A DNA stretch of 64,000 nt from Lutibacter sp. (GCF_041562875.1 NZ_JBFFOE010000005.1:454-64453), one strand, 5' to 3'; numbered from the stretch's first letter, positions 16,093 through 54,253 are shown. Numbers and translations are program-made. Notes: generated by a model not told the origin, from the letters alone.

Positions 16093-16545
16093 CTAATAAT
16101 TCTTTATAATTAAGGTTTTAAAATCTGATTTTTGAACAATACTAATATTATTAATGATTGAATTCTCTCCATAAATTAGAAGATTATTTGAATTACCTTG
16201 TTGAACTATATTAAAATTGGAAGATGTATTATTGTAATAGTTGATAAAATTGTAATAATTGCTATTTCCTAATTGATTAACCGTTTGAGAATCTGCAACA
16301 TTTTGTTTAATATCAATTTGATTGTTATTCCCTATTTGGTTTAAAGTAACAGAATTACTTTGGGCTTGTTTATTATTTATTGGAAGTGCAACATTGCTTT
16401 CAAGCCAAGAAGACTCTTTATTTAATTGAAAGTATTGATTTATAATGTGCGTATTTTCATCTGTAATTTCCTGAGCATTTCCAGTAAAGAAAGTTAAATT
16501 GAACAGTATAGAAAGTATAACTAATAGTATATGAGGATTTTTCAT
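16093..16545 (-). CDS. csgB: Minor curlin / nucleator (CsgB-like) 1
   Basis: Signal peptide, short curlin repeats (LNQIGNNN, VNQLGNSN, IVQQGNSN) and a basic final repeat QKSDFKTLIIKNY. Confidence 0.75.
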   Translation of the reverse strand: MKNPHILLVILSILFNLTFFTGNAQEITDENTHIINQYFQLNKESSWLESNVALPINNKQAQSNSVTLNQIGNNNQIDIKQNVADSQTVNQLGNSNYYNFINYYNNTSSNFNIVQQGNSNNLLIYGENSIINNISIVQKSDFKTLIIKNY

Positions 16546-16581: not shown

Positions 16582-16610
16582 AAAAAAGAGGGAATTATCC
16601 CCTCTTTTTT
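16582..16610 (-). terminator. Intrinsic terminator after curlin 1
   Basis: AAAAAAGAGGG-aattatc-CCCTCTTTTTT. Confidence 0.85.
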
Positions 16611-16695: not shown

Positions 16696-17637
16696 CTATT
16701 GAATACCCAAACTATTTTGTTGCACACAAGCTGTATTATAATTACCCATTTGATTAACTGTACTATAATTCCCTGCAGAACCAACACTATTAGCAGTTTG
16801 CTCAGTATAAGAAGCGTTACCCATACCATTTTGATAAACATCACTCACATTCCAACCTGTTGTCCCTTCGGTTTGAGTTAAACAATTCTTGTTATTTGTT
16901 CCATCTTGGTAAACAGTAGAAATATTTGTTGAACCGAATAATCCAATAGCATATGATCCAGCATTTTGCGTTTCAGAAGATGTATTTCCAGATCCATATT
17001 GAGTAGTAGTTGCTCTATTTAAACTTCCATTTTGTGTTTGGTTAACTGCATTATTATCTCCGTCTTGGTATATATATGCGGTACTTCCAGAGGCTCCATC
17101 ATTAGGCCCTGACGATTGATACTGAATAGCATCATTATTATCACCAACTTGAATTGTATGCGCCGAATTATTATCATAAAACTGAGTTTGTGAAGATCCG
17201 TTACCTAAACCTACTTGAGTAACTCTAGCCCAGTTGCTTTCGGCATAACCAGCACCAACTAATTGTTTTGCATAGTTTGAACTTCCAGATTGCCAAACAA
17301 TACTTATGTTAGAATCTCCAAATTGTTCAACATCAGAAACGTTATTATTACCATCTTGGTGAATCCAAGATTGATTATAAGACCCTCCATAACCAAATTG
17401 ATCGTCAGCACCATCTTGATTTACATTACTTAAATTTCCTGTACCGTATTGTAAAACACTTGCGAAATTCCCTTCACCATCTTGGCCGATGCCACTTACA
17501 TTATCACTTCCTTCATGATATTGCATGTCTACTTGTTGTACTTCACAATCATTGCAAGGAGCCCAACCACCTTGTGCAAATAAAGAACTTGAAGCAAATA
17601 AAAATGCTACACCTAAAAATAAATTTAATTTTTTCAT
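16696..17637 (-). CDS. csgA: Major curlin (CsgA-like) paralogue 1, 313 aa, acidic
   Basis: Signal peptide, then about 11 curlin repeats (Q-x-G-x-x-N-x-S/A-x-V-x-Q). No T9SS C-terminal domain. Confidence 0.88.
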   Translation of the reverse strand: MKKLNLFLGVAFLFASSSLFAQGGWAPCNDCEVQQVDMQYHEGSDNVSGIGQDGEGNFASVLQYGTGNLSNVNQDGADDQFGYGGSYNQSWIHQDGNNNVSDVEQFGDSNISIVWQSGSSNYAKQLVGAGYAESNWARVTQVGLGNGSSQTQFYDNNSAHTIQVGDNNDAIQYQSSGPNDGASGSTAYIYQDGDNNAVNQTQNGSLNRATTTQYGSGNTSSETQNAGSYAIGLFGSTNISTVYQDGTNNKNCLTQTEGTTGWNVSDVYQNGMGNASYTEQTANSVGSAGNYSTVNQMGNYNTACVQQNSLGIQ

Positions 17638-17861
17638 AATAATAAAATTTTAAACGTTAGTAAATTTGTAAATAATAATTAAATTTCATAAAAATTTATA
17701 GGGGACTATAACTACTTTAAAAATATGTACAAATACATATGAATGAATGTCTCTATAAACTTCTTACTTGGGGTGTAAAATTTTGTGGGGTGTAAAAATT
17801 AATTTTAATTTATTTTAGAACAAATAAAATATATAGTACTCTACACTTATTTAGTATGGGT

Positions 17862-17916
17862 CTAAATTAAATATAAAAACCTTAATTTCAATATATTAAT
17901 TATTGAAATTTGCAAA
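17862..17916 (-). promoter_or_regulatory. Curlin 1 promoter: TAATTTAG -7-like box plus upstream TTTGCAAA palindrome
   Basis: The same two elements at identical spacing precede all three curlins. Confidence 0.6.
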
Positions 17917-18056
17917 ACGTAATATTTATTTAATGAACAGTATGTAATATCACTTTAGTTACATAAAACACATTTTAAGTTAAATAAAAGACTAATTCAC
18001 CTTAAATTACTTTCTTTTTAGCTGTAATTTATTAACTTATTTTTAGAAATTGAAAA

Positions 18057-18078
18057 GCTATAACAATGAAGTTATAGC
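18057..18078 (-). terminator. Terminator after CsgB-like 2
   Basis: GCTATAAC-aatgaa-GTTATAGC, followed on the minus strand by TTTT. Confidence 0.6.
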
Positions 18079-18130
18079 AGCAGAAAGAGATATACAAGAA
18101 TGTATTGATTTATTAATACTGATTTTATAA

Positions 18131-18580
18131 TTAGTAATTTTTAATAATTAAGGTTTTAAAATCAGATTTTTGAATAATGCTAATATTATTAATTATTGAG
18201 TTTTCTCCATAAATTTGTAGATTATTAGCATTTCCCTGTTGAATGATATTAAAATTGGAAGGTGTATTATTGTAATAATTAATAAAATTGTAATAATTGT
18301 TATTCCCTAATTGACTAACTGTTTGAGAGTCTGCCACATTTTGTTTAATATCAATTTCATTGTTATTACCTATTTGGTTTAAAGTAATAAAATTACTTTG
18401 CTCTTGTTTATTATTATTTGTAGTTGGAGTTCTTTTATTTTCAAGTAAAGCAGATTCATTATTCAATTGAAAATATTGATTTATAATATAGGTATTTTCA
18501 TCTGTTTGTTGAGCATTACTATTAAAAGAAGTTAAATTAAATAGAAGTAATAAAATAAACATAAAGTAAGAAGTTTTCAT
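18131..18580 (-). CDS. csgB: Minor curlin / nucleator (CsgB-like) 2
   Basis: Close paralogue of 16093-16545. The two share QYFQLN, IDIKQNVADSQTV, NYYNFINYYNNT and QKSDFKTLIIKNY. Confidence 0.75.
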   Translation of the reverse strand: MKTSYFMFILLLLFNLTSFNSNAQQTDENTYIINQYFQLNNESALLENKRTPTTNNNKQEQSNFITLNQIGNNNEIDIKQNVADSQTVSQLGNNNYYNFINYYNNTPSNFNIIQQGNANNLQIYGENSIINNISIIQKSDFKTLIIKNY

Positions 18581-18613
18581 GATATTTAGAATTTTTATTT
18601 TATTTTTAAAAAT

Positions 18614-18647
18614 AAAAAAGGGAAGAGAAGAATTCTCTCCCCTTTTT
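18614..18647 (-). terminator. Intrinsic terminator after curlin 2
   Basis: AAAAAAGGGAAGAGA-agaat-TCTCTCCCCTTTTT imperfect hairpin with a T-tract on the minus strand. Confidence 0.75.
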
Positions 18648-18667
18648 ATTAAATAATTTACAAATAC

Positions 18668-19648
18668 CTAGAAAGGCATAAAAGCAGTAGATTGAGTTAC
18701 CAAAGCATGGTTACCCATACCAACTTGATCAACAAAACTTGTGTTCATACCACCCCAAAAAGCATCTTGAGTTACACAGGCACTATTAAAAACACCTAAT
18801 TGACTAATAGTTGAAGCGTTCATTCCCATAAAACCTGCATCTTGATTTACATCTGCGAAATTATAACTTCCAACTTGAGATATGTTACTAATGTTTGTTC
18901 CTCCAAAGGCATCTTGAGTTACACAAGCCAAATTATATCCACCAAAAAATCCTCCAATTTGATTAATAAATGAAGTATTCATACCCCATCCATAAGTAGC
19001 TTGATCACTAACTGCAGTATTTCCCCAACCAGTTTGATAAGAAGTTGCAAAATTTGCACCTCCTACTTGATCTTGTTTTGACTCGTTGTCAATTCCCATT
19101 TGAACTATAGAAGCATAATTAGGAATTGGCATAAACCAATAAGAAGGATTAAACTGATTTTGTTCTGCATAGTTACCATTACCAACTTGCATCACAGTTG
19201 CATTGTTTAAATAACCGTTTTGAGTTTGGAAAGATAAATTTCCAATTCCAGATTGAGTTGCAAGTGCAGAGTTATACCCTGTTCCCCAAGGAATAAGATT
19301 TCCACTTACTTGTTTTGCAAAATTAAAAGAACCTGTTTGGTTAATTACGCCAAAATCCATAAATCCATGTTGTTCAGTAATGGCAGTATTTCCATTACCT
19401 ATTTGATTTACATAAGCATTTTCAAATCCAAATTGAGTCACCCTTGAATAGTTTCCTAAACCAACTTGATGAACCTCAGCATCATTATATCCATAAATCT
19501 GATCAACAATACTTAAATTTCCAAATGGCATTCCATATTCTGGACTCAATTGCTGAATTGAACAACCATCACATGTTTGTTGTTGTATTTGTGAAAACAA
19601 CATACTTGTAGCGAATAATAGCGCTACAGCTAATAATAATTTTTTCAT
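18668..19648 (-). CDS. csgA: Major curlin (CsgA-like) paralogue 2, rich in aromatic residues, Gly and Met
   Basis: ATG 19648 (MKKLLL..) has the same start context as the other two curlins. About 12 curlin repeats. Confidence 0.88.
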   Translation of the reverse strand: MKKLLLAVALLFATSMLFSQIQQQTCDGCSIQQLSPEYGMPFGNLSIVDQIYGYNDAEVHQVGLGNYSRVTQFGFENAYVNQIGNGNTAITEQHGFMDFGVINQTGSFNFAKQVSGNLIPWGTGYNSALATQSGIGNLSFQTQNGYLNNATVMQVGNGNYAEQNQFNPSYWFMPIPNYASIVQMGIDNESKQDQVGGANFATSYQTGWGNTAVSDQATYGWGMNTSFINQIGGFFGGYNLACVTQDAFGGTNISNISQVGSYNFADVNQDAGFMGMNASTISQLGVFNSACVTQDAFWGGMNTSFVDQVGMGNHALVTQSTAFMPF

Positions 19649-19883
19649 AATAATAAATTTTAAAATGTTAATACTCATTAAAATAATATTTCATATAAAT
19701 TTACAAGGGAAGGAACTACATTTTAAGAAATCCATTATTTAAAATAATGAGCGACTTAAAAAAAAGCTCTATAAATTTATAAAATGGGATGAAAAAACAA
19801 TTTTTTGAGGTTTAAACTGTGGAGTGAATTTAATTTTAAAGGATCCTAAAACTATAATAAGAATACACCTATAATTTCTAATA

Positions 19884-19938
19884 CTAATATACATATTAAT
19901 TTATCTTTTTAAAAGTATTCTTTTATTTTTTTTGCATA
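19884..19938 (-). promoter_or_regulatory. Curlin 2 promoter: TATATTAG plus TTTGCATA
   Basis: Homologous to the curlin 1 and 3 promoters, with the same spacing. Confidence 0.6.
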
Positions 19939-20033
19939 AAGCACACTTTTATAAACAATTGGAAACAAATGCATTCTTTTTAACACATTATGAAATGCCA
20001 CCTTATTGCAACATAATTGTTTAATCTTAAATA

Positions 20034-20063
20034 AAAAAAAGGGGGAATTACCCCCCTTTTTTT
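20034..20063 (-). terminator. Intrinsic terminator after curlin 3
   Basis: A-tract-GGGGG-aatta-CCCCC-T-tract. Confidence 0.85.
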
Positions 20064-20105
20064 GTTAAATTTTATATAATTTAATTCGGATTTCAATTAA
20101 TTATC

Positions 20106-21434
20106 TTAATGTCCACCTTCACCTCCACAGTTTCCACTTCCATCTCCTCCACCTCCGTGTTGACTTACATTAGAAGTTATTCCTGATCCATTATGAAAAA
20201 CATTACTTGTGTTTCCCATTCCTCGTTGAGTAACTTCAGAAGTATTATAGGAACCTAACTGCATTGTGTAACTTACGTTAAATTTACCGTGTTGTTCAGT
20301 TGTAGCTGTATTATTATTTCCAAACTGATTTGTTATGCTCAATCCACCATGACCATGTTGTTCTGTATTAGCAATATTATCATTACCAAATTGGTATTCC
20401 CAAGAATCATTTGAATTACCCGTTTGGAAAGTTGTTTGATCATTATCATTACCTATTTGAAGAACAAAACTTTCATTTGTTTTACTATCTTGTGTAGTTG
20501 AAGAGCTGTTGCCTTCACCAAATTGAGTTGTTGTACTAAAACTACCATTACCAGCTTGTTTTGTAAATGCCGTATTTCCATCTCCAACTTGCAACGTATA
20601 ACTTAAAACATTATGCCCTTCTTGTTCTGTAGTAGAAGTATTTCTTTCTCCAAATTGAGCTGTATAAGCATCATTTCCATTTCCTTTTTGGTCTGTAGTT
20701 TGTGTATTTCTGTATCCATCTTGGTAAACATAACTTTCATGAGCTTCAGTTACCTCACCTTCCTCAGCTGTCATTAGCTCTGGCTCATCGCTTCCACCTT
20801 CTTCTCCACCGCCTTTTTGAGATGTTGTAGATTTATTCACATACCCATTTTGATATTCATAAGCTTCATGATTTGTTCCTCTTTGGTCTACATCAGACAT
20901 GTTTCCACTTCCAAATTGATGTTGTAATGTATAATTTGATTTTCCGTGTTGTTCAGCAATAGCACTATTTTTAGTTATTCCCCAATTAGAAGCTTTTTGA
21001 ACTTGAACTGTTCTGTTTTCAGATCCTTTTTGAATTATACTTGCACTATTACCTCCCCAAGAATACCAATTTGCACCTGATTGATTTTGGATTGCTTCAT
21101 TTGCATGTCCATCTTGATCTATGCTACCAATATTATAAAAATCACGTTGTGTTTGACGTGCATAATTTCCATTAGCAACTTGCTTAATTTCCGCTGTACT
21201 CCAATGAGACCCAACCTGATCAACATTTGCTTCATTTAAATGCCCCTTTTGATCTACATTAGCAGTATTGAACCATCCAAATTGATCAATGTCAGAATCA
21301 TTTGTGTTTCCACGTTGTTCTACTGTTGAAGCATTATTTTTCCCTTGTGAATTTACATCACTGGTATTTGATTGTGCATAAATTAATGATGTTGCCATCA
21401 TTGTTATTACTAAAATAGATAATAATTTTTTCAT
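20106..21434 (-). CDS. csgA: Major curlin (CsgA-like) paralogue 3, 442 aa, charged and His-rich
   Basis: Signal peptide, about 17 curlin repeats (e.g. QxGxxNxSxxxQ), an acidic insertion and a Gly-rich tail. Confidence 0.88.
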   Translation of the reverse strand: MKKLLSILVITMMATSLIYAQSNTSDVNSQGKNNASTVEQRGNTNDSDIDQFGWFNTANVDQKGHLNEANVDQVGSHWSTAEIKQVANGNYARQTQRDFYNIGSIDQDGHANEAIQNQSGANWYSWGGNSASIIQKGSENRTVQVQKASNWGITKNSAIAEQHGKSNYTLQHQFGSGNMSDVDQRGTNHEAYEYQNGYVNKSTTSQKGGGEEGGSDEPELMTAEEGEVTEAHESYVYQDGYRNTQTTDQKGNGNDAYTAQFGERNTSTTEQEGHNVLSYTLQVGDGNTAFTKQAGNGSFSTTTQFGEGNSSSTTQDSKTNESFVLQIGNDNDQTTFQTGNSNDSWEYQFGNDNIANTEQHGHGGLSITNQFGNNNTATTEQHGKFNVSYTMQLGSYNTSEVTQRGMGNTSNVFHNGSGITSNVSQHGGGGDGSGNCGGEGGH

Positions 21435-21676
21435 AATAATAAAATTTAAATGTTAATACTAATTAAAATAATATTCCATATAAATTTATAGGGAAAATAA
21501 CTACATTTTAAGAAAGCTATTAGTTAACACATAACAATATGATAACTTTAAGCAACTTTAAAAAAGCGCTATAAACTTATAAAATGGGGATAAACAATTT
21601 TGTGAGGTTTAAACTGTGGAGTTATTTTAATCAAGAGATTAGAAATTATAAACGTATACATTTATAATTTCTAGTA

Positions 21677-21731
21677 CTAAGATAAATACTAATTTGTCAT
21701 CTTAAAAGTATTTTTTCTCATAATTTGCAAA
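21677..21731 (-). promoter_or_regulatory. Curlin 3 promoter: TATCTTAG plus TTTGCAAA
   Basis: Homologous to the curlin 1 and 2 promoters, with the same spacing. Confidence 0.6.
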
Positions 21732-21865
21732 AAGCAAGTTTTAATAAATAATTGGAAATAAAGTTATTGTTTATACGTTACTTTAATTACATAACTAATC
21801 ATTTATCAGAATAATTCAACATAAATTATTAAATATTGGATACTTAATTTTATAATTATTTAAAC

Positions 21866-43401: not shown

Positions 43402-43581
43402 TACCCCCAAATTTTTTATGGGTAGTGTGGTTATTTTTATTATTTTATTTACTTATACCCTATTTTTTTATGGGTAATTTAAATATTATTATTATTTATT
43501 AAGAATTATACCCTAATTTTTTATGGGCATATAATTTGAAAATAAGAATATATGATTATACACCCCAAATTTTAGAGGGTA
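43402..43581. repeat. Array of four CCC-N11-GGG palindromes with a 52-53-bp period
   Basis: GGG half-sites start at 43420, 43472, 43525 and 43577. Spacers are aaattttttat, tatttttttat, taattttttat and caaattttaga. Confidence 0.9.
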
Positions 43582-52486: not shown

Positions 52487-54253
52487 ATGTTTGAAATTTC
52501 CCAATTAAAGGAGAAAACACTTGTAGACTTACAAGAGATAGCAAAAACTATTGGAGCAAAAAAATTCAGTCAATTAAATAAACTAGATTTAGTTTATTTA
52601 ATATTAGACATTCAAGCTACAACTCCTTCAACAATTACAAAAATTTCATCTAATGATGAAAAAACTAAACGCAGAAGAATTGTAAAAAAAGTAAATCCTG
52701 CTAAAGACACAAAAATAATTCCAACTGAAAACATTCAGAAAGAATTTGCTTTAGAAACGAAAGTTGATGTTGATATTCAACCTGAACAAAAGAGAGCTTT
52801 AAAACCTAATAAAAGAGCTGAAATTAAAAAGCCAATTGCAATTAACGAAACAGTTGTAAAGGAAGAAGTTGAAAGCACTAATAGTGCTAACACAACAAAT
52901 GATGCTATAGCTGAACCTGAAAAAGTTCAAACAAATAAGCCAAAACCAGTTCATCCACCTAAACAGGTGAACAAGCCTAATCCTCCAAAACAGCAAAATC
53001 AAGTTAATCAACCAAAACCAGTTCATCCACCTAAACAGGTGAATAAACCTAATCCACCTAAACCAAGACCTCAACCAAGAGACAACAAAGGTCAACATAT
53101 TAATAACGCTAACCGTTATAGAGATCCCGATTACGAATTTGATGGTATTATTGAAAGTGAAGGTGTATTAGAAATGATGCCTGATGGATATGGATTTTTA
53201 CGCTCATCAGATTATAACTATTTATCATCTCCTGATGATATTTATTTATCACAATCTCAAGTAAAATTATTTGGTTTAAAAACTGGAGATACTGTAAAAG
53301 GTGTTGTAAGACCTCCAAAAGAAGGCGAAAAATATTTTCCATTAATACGTGTATCAAAAATAAATGGATTAAATCCTAATATTGTAAGAGACCGTGTTTC
53401 ATTTGAACATTTAACTCCATTATTCCCAGAAGAAAAATTTAATTTAGCAGGAAAAGGGAGTACACTTTCTACAAGAATTATGGATTTGTTTTCACCAATT
53501 GGAAAAGGGCAAAGAGGAATGATTGTTTCTCAGCCAAAAACTGGTAAAACAATGTTACTAAAGGATATTGCAAATTCAATTGCATCTAACCATCCTGAAG
53601 TTTATCAAATTATTTTATTAATTGATGAAAGACCTGAAGAGGTAACAGATATGCAACGTAGTGTAAAAGGTGAGGTTGTTGCTTCAACTTTTGACGAACC
53701 TGCAGAAAAACACGTAAGAGTTGCTAATATTGTTTTAGAAAAAGCAAAAAGATTGGTTGAATGTGGCCATGATGTTGTTATTTTATTAGATTCAATTACT
53801 CGTTTAGCCAGAGCTTATAATACTGTTGCGCCAGCCTCAGGTAAAATTTTATCGGGTGGTATTGATGCAAATGCATTACACAAACCTAAACGTTTCTTTG
53901 GAGCTGCACGTAATATTGAAAATGGTGGTTCATTAACAATTATTGCAACTGCTTTAACTGAAACTGGTTCAAAAATGGATGAAGTAATTTTTGAAGAATT
54001 TAAGGGAACAGGTAATATGGAACTTCAATTAGAAAGAAATATTTCTAACCGTAGAATATATCCAGCCATTGATCTTGTTAAATCTAGCACGCGTAGAGAT
54101 GACTTACTATTAGACCCTAAAACTGTTAAACGTATGTGGGTACTTAGAAAATATTTAGCAGATATGAATCCTGTTGAAGCAATGGAATTTATTAAAGATA
54201 AAATCCAATACACAACATCAAATGATGAGTTTTTAATTTCTATGAACGGATAG
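52487..54253 (+). CDS. rho: Transcription termination factor Rho with a long N-terminal insertion
   Basis: [68 protein letters not shown]. Confidence 0.98.
52940..53062 (+). repeat. 72-nt-period direct repeat in the rho insertion ([17 protein letters not shown] x2)
   Basis: CCAAAACCAGTTCATCCACCTAAACAGGTGAA at 52940 and 53012. Confidence 0.9.

Follow-up and report, generated by a model that had tools for sequence, protein, structure and literature searches.

Each of three curlin genes in this Lutibacter genome is preceded by a copy of the same conserved region, and we consider it reasonably likely that these copies are a structured 5′ leader of about 220–240 nt that serves both as a C-rich platform for a trans-acting factor and as a stabilizer of the mRNA. 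The Curlin_rpt genes (16696–17637, 18668–19648 and 20106–21434) lie on the minus strand of the window, the 64,000-nt stretch of Lutibacter sp. DNA that was analysed (NZ_JBFFOE010000005.1:454-64453), and all features described here are on that strand. The homologous region found directly upstream of each gene bears out an earlier note on this DNA, which had proposed a conserved leader before all three curlins.

Leader 3 (21435–21672) is the predicted 5′ UTR, 238 nt long, of the 442-aa curlin gene at 20106–21434, with its start placed 5 nt after the -7 box; leader 2 (19649–19879; 231 nt) and leader 1 (17638–17857; 220 nt) would be those of the 326-aa gene at 18668–19648 and the 313-aa gene at 16696–17637, respectively. 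The three align with a mean column identity of 78% and match our covariance model of the leader, R1, with 81.5, 75.7 and 64.4 bits. All three carry the ordered sense-strand motifs and the identical start context that had been described before: CCAC/CCTC/CCCC blocks, (A)AGTTTATAG, GTAGTT and CCCT(A/T)(T/G)AAATTT. As the three leaders are paralogues, the motifs they have in common are not independent evidence, and the evidence beyond chance comes from 37–48 homologous leaders in other genomes, collected from the genus Lutibacter (Flavobacteriaceae).

The leader is conserved across this genus, and its presence tracks curli genes. Alignment over the full length is possible for the window's three leaders together with 37 from 20 other Lutibacter genomes, and R1 finds one to four copies in 25 of 63 Lutibacter genomes, with every located copy directly before a curlin-like ORF. 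CsgF is encoded in 24 of the 25 leader-carrying genomes, and the leader occurs in only 1 of the 30 genomes without CsgF (Fisher p = 9e-9). Additionally, nine genomes, some of them without curli, have a diverged leader before a gene for a lipoprotein of ~520 aa; these leaders consist of tandem C-rich modules and a P3-like stem (see below) in which UGUAG/CUACA replaces UAUAG/CUAUA. Curlins of Tenacibaculum and Polaribacter have analogous long leaders with UUUUACCC blocks.

Similarity among the three leaders reaches ~60–100 nt beyond the 5′ coordinates of the earlier note, into a Bacteroidota-type promoter (TTG, 19 nt, TAnnTT(A/T)G) at the exact 5′ edge of the leader regions. Among the 37 homologues, 36 have the -7 box TAnnTT(A/T/C)G and 21 have TTG exactly 19 nt upstream of it. 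Leader 1 has the -7 box TAATTTAG (17862–17869) and, after a spacer of 19 nt, a -33 TTG (17889–17891), together spanning 17862–17891. The promoters of leader 2 (19884–19915) and leader 3 (21677–21708) combine the -7 boxes TATATTAG (19884–19891) and TATCTTAG (21677–21684) with weak -33 elements at 19912–19915 and, 19–20 nt upstream of the box, at 21705–21708 (CTTT). The 5′ boundaries given earlier coincide with the start site predicted from this conserved -33/-7 promoter. Its position at the 5′ edge implies a 5′ UTR of 220–238 nt, so that both the start site and the long UTR are deduced from motif geometry; sequencing runs that contain this locus look like metagenomic DNA, and no RNA run is among them. 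For comparison, the -7 box of Flavobacterium psychrophilum promoters occupies positions -12 to -5, and 5′ UTRs in that species have a median length of 24 nt (PMC9723704), which would make the curlin leader about ten times the usual length.

From 5′ to 3′, the leader is ordered as a hairpin (P1), unpaired C-rich blocks, a long-range stem with an unpaired C-rich loop (P3) and an open, AU-rich start region. In leader 3, P1 is a predicted 5′-terminal hairpin of 13 bp (21642–21671; GAAAUUAUAAAUG/CGUUUAUAAUUUC). Most homologues have a hairpin of differing sequence at this position (mean z -1.9; 23 of 37 below -1.5), and in most of the 37 leaders it is predicted to begin 0–5 nt from the putative start. 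The block array that follows is G-poor and single-stranded, with three to four C-rich blocks of the forms (U/A)CCCCA(C), ..GUUUAAAC-CUCA.. and UUACCCCA; the positions of the blocks are conserved, together with neighbouring bases other than C, for example in GUUUAAAC and UUA-CCCCA. Unpaired blocks lie at 21618–21621 (CTCC), 21604–21607 (CCTC) and 21586–21589 (CCCC) in leader 3, with GTTTAAAC between them (array 21586–21621); at 19821–19824 (CTCC), 19807–19810 (CCTC) and 19786–19788 (CCC) in leader 2 (array 19786–19824); and at 17787–17790 and 17770–17773 (both CCCC) in leader 1 (array 17770–17790). A candidate hairpin in leader 3, P2 (21611–21617 with 21594–21600), is weakly supported, with 76–78% pairing and one pair broken in 16 of 41 sequences.

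P3 joins site A, its 5′ strand, to site B, its 3′ strand. In leader 3, A is UAUAAGUUUAUAG (21569–21581) and B is CUAUAAAUUUAUA (21479–21491); the interior (21492–21568) folds into an inner stem (21565–21568 with 21499–21502), a sequence-variable apical hairpin and an unpaired 3′-side loop, AUUUUCC (21492–21498). The corresponding sites are UAUAAAUUUAUAG (19769–19781) and UUGUAAAUUUAUA (19694–19706) in leader 2, with the internal loop CCUUCCC (19707–19713), and AAGAAGUUUAUAG (17753–17765) and CUAUAAAUUUUUA (17689–17701) in leader 1, with the internal loop UAGUCCC (17702–17708). This loop, (C)AAUUCCCC, is conserved and unpaired on the 3′ side only, and it is unpaired in every single-sequence fold of the 37 leaders. 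In all three copies the minimum-free-energy fold contains the pairing of TATAAA-type segments suggested by the earlier note, over 12–13 bp, and it reproduces exactly the apical hairpin that the note listed for each copy (ATATGTA/TACATAT, CATTATT(T)/(A)AATAATG and AGTTA.CATAT/ATATG.TAACT). With the boundaries used here, the stem encloses 51, 62 and 77 nt, each 14 nt shorter than the 65, 76 and 91 nt given previously, whereas the differences between copies are the same. Against dinucleotide shuffles, the folds of leaders 3, 2 and 1 have z-scores of -4.3, -5.0 and -2.0, and single-sequence folds of the homologues pair A with B in ~34 of 37 leaders (mean z -2.86).

Selection acts on P3 to maintain its base pairing on the sense strand. 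RNAalifold returns the A:B stem as the sole consensus helix, with compensatory changes at 7 of its 11 pairs, and in the MAFFT alignment of the 37 leaders the helix has 13 pairs, 8 of them with double changes, and is 87.5% paired; across alignments the figures are 8–9 of 13 pairs with compensatory changes and 87–89% pairing. Significant covariation, a check that had been named beforehand, holds for this stem: the covariation observed over the whole model was reached by none of 500 shuffles, a statistic that is inflated by the many paralogues and close relatives in the set. Sliding the 3′ partner by 1–3 columns lowers pairing to 33–49%, a control that answers this inflation by kinship only in part. 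An alignment of 46 distinct sequences fitted to the model, and hence leaning towards it, is 85% paired with double changes in 19 of 24 pairs, and in it the inner helix of P3 is 85.6% paired with double changes in all four pairs. Across the leaders, 146 G-U pairs stand against 14 A-C, which makes the pairing specific to the sense (mRNA) strand and agrees with the earlier remark that the differences between segments give G-U pairs on that strand. Thus, of the proposal that this is a cis-regulatory RNA, the structured sense-strand leader is upheld by the compensatory changes, the shuffles and the G-U excess, and the regulatory role is what we infer.

The sequence of the P3 strands is strongly conserved, beyond what pairing alone explains, and in leaders 2 and 3 each site forms a near-perfect palindrome. 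These properties would suit a pair of palindromic operators in the DNA (TATAAATTTATA), located downstream of the promoter, at which a dimeric repressor could roadblock transcription or loop the DNA, but we find this reading hardly credible. Covariation within a site is nil (one of 12 pairs has a double change, and 473 of 500 shuffles are no less paired) and that between sites is strong; complementarity runs past the palindromes, through a G-C closing pair and the inner stem; and the G-U excess is again at odds with a DNA site. Spacing between A and B ranges from 34 to 80 nt without helical phasing, and two leaders (G058b and G039b) have both palindromes broken with the A:B pairing kept. The individual sites thus do not keep their own two-fold symmetry as they evolve, and as self-palindromes they are less often paired than the average shuffle.

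The curlin leader belongs to no described RNA family. The earlier statement that it matches no riboswitch holds, as does the cmscan check proposed with it: Rfam 15 at E<=10 gave no match inside any of the three leaders, none in 21400–21800 of the window and none specifically to the c-di-GMP-I/II and c-di-AMP riboswitches or Flavo-1. In one relative (L044), the only notable Rfam 15 matches fell on a terminator that lies upstream and is not part of the leader itself, and no other match reached half of a family's gathering score. A small-molecule riboswitch, as implied by the probing with c-di-GMP and c-di-AMP that had been suggested, would fit a conserved, structured leader with conserved unpaired nucleotides before biofilm-matrix genes, a place that several known riboswitches occupy. 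We nevertheless judge it very unlikely, as no Rfam riboswitch family is matched, no multi-helix junction or pseudoknot was found, the three leaders hold neither a terminator-like site nor a start-sequestering expression platform, and the most conserved helix, P3, is AU-only with an apex that varies freely in length. As a ligand, c-di-GMP is itself unlikely, because the GGDEF domain (PF00990) is absent from this 96%-complete genome, so that c-di-GMP is unlikely to be made, and no switch sequestering the ribosome-binding site is predicted.

In leader 3 the start region spans 21432–21478 and ends in the invariant UUAUUAUG AAA AAA; across leaders it is an AU-rich stretch of 45–60 nt that is predicted to be open (unpaired probability ~0.47 in leader 3). 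Blocking either site of P3, A or B, leaves its predicted accessibility unchanged; as it is independent of P3, no simple translational switch is visible. An open start region whatever P3 does would also suit a pure stability element of the kind represented by the E. coli ompA leader and long S-layer gene leaders, in which the sole role of P1 and P3 would be to protect a highly abundant mRNA and the C blocks would have no dedicated partner. The placement of P1 at the putative 5′ end favours this view, and the genes encode major extracellular structural proteins. We think it improbable as a complete account, because it leaves unexplained why C runs are enriched 7-fold and kept in position, why P3 has a conserved, unpaired C-rich loop and why the lipoprotein leaders carry tandem C-rich modules.

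The C-run enrichment is real and strand-specific. We counted 126 CCC runs and 3 GGG runs in 8,040 nt of leader (15.7 and 0.37 per kb), compared with 2.2 per kb of each in upstream regions genome-wide, a ~7-fold enrichment of CCC. In the combined reading, every leader would have a sigma-A-type Bacteroidota promoter of its own, be co-transcribed with the curlin gene that follows and act in cis after transcription starts. P1 and P3 would hold the C-rich array in place, and the array may be a platform on which a trans-acting factor specific for C-rich single-stranded RNA binds or loads, either Rho with conditional premature termination or an oligomeric RNA-binding protein, and P1 and P3 may protect the abundant mRNA from decay. 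The leader would thereby probably control the amount of fibre protein made. If so, a single factor could set the output of all curlin paralogues and of the lipoprotein gene with the diverged leader.

A Rho-dependent attenuator is one version of this explanation, in which the G-poor, C-rich array would be a rut-like site and transcription would terminate in the leader or early gene unless prevented by a factor or by the prevailing conditions. We regard it as possible but not probable. The long untranslated leader has 4–7 C blocks over 55–90 nt and almost no G runs, one lipoprotein-type leader (L151) has seven C blocks ~8–22 nt apart, and the contig that contains the window encodes a long-form Rho (open frame of 593 aa). 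However, the C/G ratio in 78-nt windows lies only at the 82nd–86th percentile of this genome's upstream regions, so that as a Rho-type 'C>G bubble' the leader does not stand out. The blocks are also conserved in position and in their flanking bases, and rut sites usually show less conservation of either kind. A further reading, which we regard as improbable, is that the array is recognized by a so far undescribed, oligomeric regulator that binds C-rich RNA, or reflects a dedicated use of Rho, and that this factor co-ordinates the output of functional amyloid and surface lipoprotein throughout the Flavobacteriaceae. This would amount to a CsrA-like global post-transcriptional system in that family, with the curlin leaders of Lutibacter, Tenacibaculum and Polaribacter as genus-specific target variants; we know of no CsrA or Hfq counterpart characterized in this lineage.

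In enterobacteria, curli are known to be controlled post-transcriptionally by way of a long 5′ UTR, as the csgD 5′ UTR of E. coli and Salmonella is a hub for the sRNAs McaS, RprA, OmrA/B, GcvB and RydC (PMC6061853, PMC3985669). That leader, however, precedes csgD, a regulator gene, and uses Hfq-dependent sRNA pairing at the ribosome-binding site, whereas in Lutibacter each subunit gene has its own leader, which has no Shine-Dalgarno site and for which no partner sRNA was found. In Rfam 15, Flavo-1 and further Bacteroidota motifs are likewise computationally defined structured elements of Flavobacteriaceae without known function, but none matched the window or a relative at E<=10.

Other comparable leaders are the E. 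coli ompA 5′ UTR, an mRNA stabilizer with a 5′-terminal hairpin, and the long 5′ leaders of S-layer genes. These too are long structured leaders of genes for very abundant surface or extracellular structural proteins, and they combine, as is predicted for the curlin leader, a hairpin at the 5′ terminus with unpaired stretches that separate the hairpins and with an accessible start region. The curlin leader has no sequence or structural homology to them, is about twice as long, and adds a repeated C-rich array and an AU-only stem with a one-sided loop. Rut sites also occur in long 5′ leaders, such as those of E. coli rho and of Salmonella mgtA and corA, and resemble the curlin leader in a C-rich, G-poor and largely unpaired stretch of 55–90 nt before the coding region; they differ from it in that its blocks are conserved in position and sequence and its C/G ratio is unexceptional for the genome.

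Leaders and sponges with multiple protein-binding sites are recognized through GGA by CsrA/RsmE, (G/U)AG repeats by TRAP and UAG repeats by HutP. A CsrA-type leader was rejected, because the curlin leaders have 9% G and three GGG runs in 8 kb, and their repeated motif is C-rich. This motif is CCCC or CCUC, unlike GGA or UAG, and no block overlaps the start codon. The architecture is nevertheless alike, in that a short single-stranded motif is repeated between or on hairpins, with tandem modules in the lipoprotein leaders.

The three large Curlin_rpt proteins of this locus (minus strand, 20106-21434, 18668-19648 and 16696-17637) are encoded behind leaders 3, 2 and 1, respectively, and we show that this leader forms a conserved structure at the RNA level and is associated with curlin genes. 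The homology claimed in the earlier note is borne out, as the three upstream regions show 78% column identity when aligned, contain all of the motifs it listed, and remain similar further upstream than it had drawn them. Its two TATAAA-type segments, here site A and site B (the 5' and 3' strands of a long-range stem, P3), pair in the minimum-free-energy fold of every copy, and the three copy-specific apical hairpins are predicted exactly as described. In leaders 3, 2 and 1 the A-to-B module folds with z-scores of -4.3, -5.0 and -2.0, respectively. As the three copies are paralogues, we sought independent evidence in other genomes.

BLAST and nhmmer recovered the same leader from many genomes of the genus, giving a set of 37 leaders, each directly 5' of an open reading frame with an MKK... 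signal peptide and an invariant start context. By BLASTP, such frames are curlin-like in named Lutibacter loci, several of them on the same contigs as the leaders. A covariance model of the leader core (R1; 121 positions, 24 pairs) found one to four copies in 25 of 63 genomes of the genus, and, under strict filters, nothing convincing beyond the genus in 401 genomes from 302 genera of the family. CsgF was present in 24 of the 25 genomes with the leader, while the leader occurred in 1 of 30 genomes without CsgF (Fisher p = 9e-9), where the locus lies at a contig end. Leader presence thus tracks curli. A mobile element or MITE was rejected because every located copy, here and in relatives, directly precedes a curlin or lipoprotein gene; the distance to the ATG is identical across 38 mapped curlin leaders. 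R1 finds strong copies in this genome only at the three curlin genes, and together with nhmmer it adds the lipoprotein leader and no others. Crude genome-wide pattern scans for additional C-block leaders, or for a partner sRNA rich in G, were too noisy for use. Separately, a 452-kb contig labelled MAG: Sulfurovum sp. NORP62 (NVVN01000001.1) has a curli locus of the Lutibacter type, including two R1 leader matches and a CsgG 70% identical to the one in the window, and is probably mis-binned.

Two palindromic DNA sites had been put forward as the alternative to an RNA element. The segment TATAAATTTATA is its own reverse complement, so that two direct copies automatically resemble an inverted repeat, and the two readings were separated by asking which symmetry survives sequence change. 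In a MAFFT alignment, RNAalifold returned the A:B helix as the sole consensus structure, with compensatory changes in 7 of 11 pairs; counted pair by pair in the same alignment, A:B has 13 pairs, 8 of them changed on both sides, and 87.5% of cells paired. None of 500 shuffles reached the whole structure model on any of five measures, and when the 3' partner was slid by 1-3 columns, only 33-49% pairing was left and the covariation score fell from 0.24 to at most 0.10. Palindromic operators, in which each site would pair with itself, showed one double change in 12 pairs and lay below the shuffle mean. In two homologous leaders (G058b and G039b) both palindromes are broken (TATAACTATATA and TATATAATTATA) and A:B pairing is kept through a U-A to A-U swap.

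The complementarity also goes past the palindromes, into a covarying G-C closing pair (GC, GU, AU, UA) and an inner stem that is 85.6% paired with double changes in all four pairs, as measured in a model-fitted alignment, which leans towards the model. G-U pairs number 146 against 14 A-C mismatches, which confines the helix to the mRNA-sense strand. The A-B distance varies from 34 to 80 nt without 10.5-bp phasing (Rayleigh p = 0.69), which fits a hairpin with a free apex and not looped operators. On covariation, G-U bias and unphased spacing, we reject the DNA alternative in favour of an RNA helix. Folded singly, about 34 of the 37 leaders form the A:B pairing (mean z -2.86), and the 3' side of the P3 helix always bears an unpaired loop, (C)AAUUCCCC.

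The best-conserved upstream element, TAnnTT(A/T/C)G, is found in 36 of 37 leaders; in 21 of them, a TTG precedes it at a distance of exactly 19 nt. This arrangement is the sigma-A promoter geometry of Bacteroidota. This conserved geometry would place the start sites at ~21672, 19879 and 17857, with predicted UTRs of 238, 231 and 220 nt; the 5' ends that the earlier note gave to its regions coincide with these positions. Flavobacterium psychrophilum has its -7 box at -12 to -5, with a median 5' UTR of 24 nt (PMC9723704). Run searches matched the locus only to DNA-like metagenome contigs and to no RNA run, the L. profundi locus had no coverage in hydrothermal-vent metatranscriptomes, and a sediment 'RNA' contig (X27) covering a related leader extends well past the inferred start and is thus uninformative about it. 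All three curlin promoters share a T(T/A)TGCAAA element about 17 nt upstream of the -33 element (21724-21733, 19931-19940 and 17909-17918, minus strand), of which TTTGCAAA is a palindrome. Many relatives carry TGTAAC..GTTAC-like repeats further upstream in its place, and both kinds of element are possible transcription factor sites.

In most leaders a 5'-terminal hairpin, P1, begins within a few nucleotides of the inferred start, and its sequence varies among leaders. The stretch from P1 to site A is poor in G and contains conserved C-rich blocks together with the octamer GUUUAAAC; across 8,040 nt of leader there are 126 CCC and 3 GGG runs, compared with 2.2 per kb of each in upstream regions genome-wide. 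A hairpin within this architecture, P2 (ACAGUUU/AAAUUGU), is a weak candidate, being 76-78% paired with one pair broken in 16 of 41 sequences, and the region reads equally well as tandem C-rich modules. The final 45-60 nt are rich in A and U, and the fold predicts them to be open. Sequestration of the start site was rejected because partition-function folds gave a start-region openness of 0.47, against 0.46 and 0.48 with site A or B blocked. Pairing of GUUUAAAC with GUUUAAA just 5' of the AUG was also rejected, since inspection of the leader alignment by eye shows the start region unchanged in leaders with GUAUAAAC, and hence no covariation. A leader peptide or start-stop frame (AUGUAG, on the 3' strand of P3) was not conserved in the same alignment, again judged by eye, and the leader was not an outlier as a rut-like C>G bubble. 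Three Rfam scans gave no match in the leaders, in keeping with the earlier note, which recognized no matching riboswitch. Control by a c-di-GMP riboswitch is unlikely, given a genome without a GGDEF domain, this lack of an Rfam match and the absence of an expression platform.

Within the locus, a strong terminator-like hairpin stands at the end of each large curlin gene. Curlin 2 is followed by a hairpin (18615-18647, minus strand) and a 149-aa gene (18131-18580), and curlin 1 by a hairpin (16582-16610), a 150-aa gene (16093-16545) and then csgEFG, all on the minus strand for the curlin, hairpin and small-gene coordinates. As only ~35 nt separate hairpin and next ATG, the small genes and csgEFG may depend on partial read-through. 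Neither small gene has its own leader. Their products, with N/Q/G-rich repeat character and sub-threshold Curlin_rpt matches (E 0.025 and 0.08), are possibly CsgB-like nucleators.

A diverged leader, matched weakly by R1 and nhmmer, precedes a lipoprotein gene at a contig end outside the window (G000:C14:1-720 of this genome, minus strand). This family (MKNLFKILLGLFLIGFAVSCNKDE...; ~520 aa, no Pfam match) has an R1 match 50-180 nt before the ATG in nine Lutibacter genomes, some without CsgF (loci L144-L151 and L154). These leaders follow the same plan of -7 box, P1, tandem modules, long P3-like hairpin and AU-rich start region, with two or three modules of the type ACCCC..GUAUUUAACCUC or CACCUCA..GUUUU and with UGUAG/CUACA replacing UAUAG/CUAUA in the hairpin. 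Curlin genes of Tenacibaculum (loci L122-L130, L138, L140 and L142) and Polaribacter (L125 and L129) have a conserved long leader, ~260 nt before the ATG, that is different from but analogous to that of Lutibacter. It has several hairpins and repeated UUUUACCC blocks in addition to a TAnnTTAG (-7) box and GUUUAAAC; a long-range stem (such as AGCACC/GGUGUG versus GUAUACC/GGUAUGC) encloses a variable hairpin, and the start region resembles that of Lutibacter. Blocks rich in C can likewise be seen upstream of the curlins of Salinimicrobium, Joostella and other genera.

Two further C-rich regions were observed in this genome. An AT-rich intergenic region at 43404-43566 (plus strand; G000:C5:43857-44019) holds four tandem units ACCC(C/T)AAATTTTTTATGGGT, each a CCC-N-GGG inverted repeat, and is unrelated to the curlin leader. 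Outside the window, G000:C34:9817-9961 (minus strand) lies upstream of a large secreted protein (MKTIITLLVLFFLFCTSIFSQ...) and contains three ACCCC(A/T)T blocks without any G runs; missed by both R1 and nhmmer, it is possibly another C-block leader.

We suggest that a trans-acting factor would bind the array of single-stranded C blocks flanked by P1 and P3, because the array recurs in tandem in a second gene family, because C blocks are kept across genera in which other sequence has changed, and because no self-contained switch is predicted. Rho is, to our knowledge, the only factor for which binding to C-rich RNA is known, and the window itself encodes it (~53159-53377, plus strand; G000:C5:53612-53830), as a 593-aa open frame of the long form with an extra N-terminal region. 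However, the leader C/G ratio is not exceptional for this genome and the C blocks are conserved along with their flanking bases; thus, we consider a dedicated RNA-binding protein about as probable as Rho. P1 and P3 may have a stabilizing role compatible with either.

In the literature we found no account of a leader RNA upstream of curlin genes in Bacteroidota, and we rate this leader as a new family within a known kind, the structured 5' leader RNA, and as a new Rfam candidate. Little is known of post-transcriptional regulators in Bacteroidota; we know of no Shine-Dalgarno-based initiation in the phylum and of few characterized RNA-binding proteins. The leader covaries clearly, repeats a single-stranded motif and has target genes in at least two families, which makes it a ready-made bait for a post-transcriptional factor. 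Curli are the best-studied bacterial functional amyloids, but what is known of their regulation comes almost entirely from enterobacteria, in which the regulator CsgD is the point of convergence. The subunit genes of marine Flavobacteriaceae each have a long, structured, C-block-bearing leader of their own, which would put curli control directly on the subunit mRNAs.
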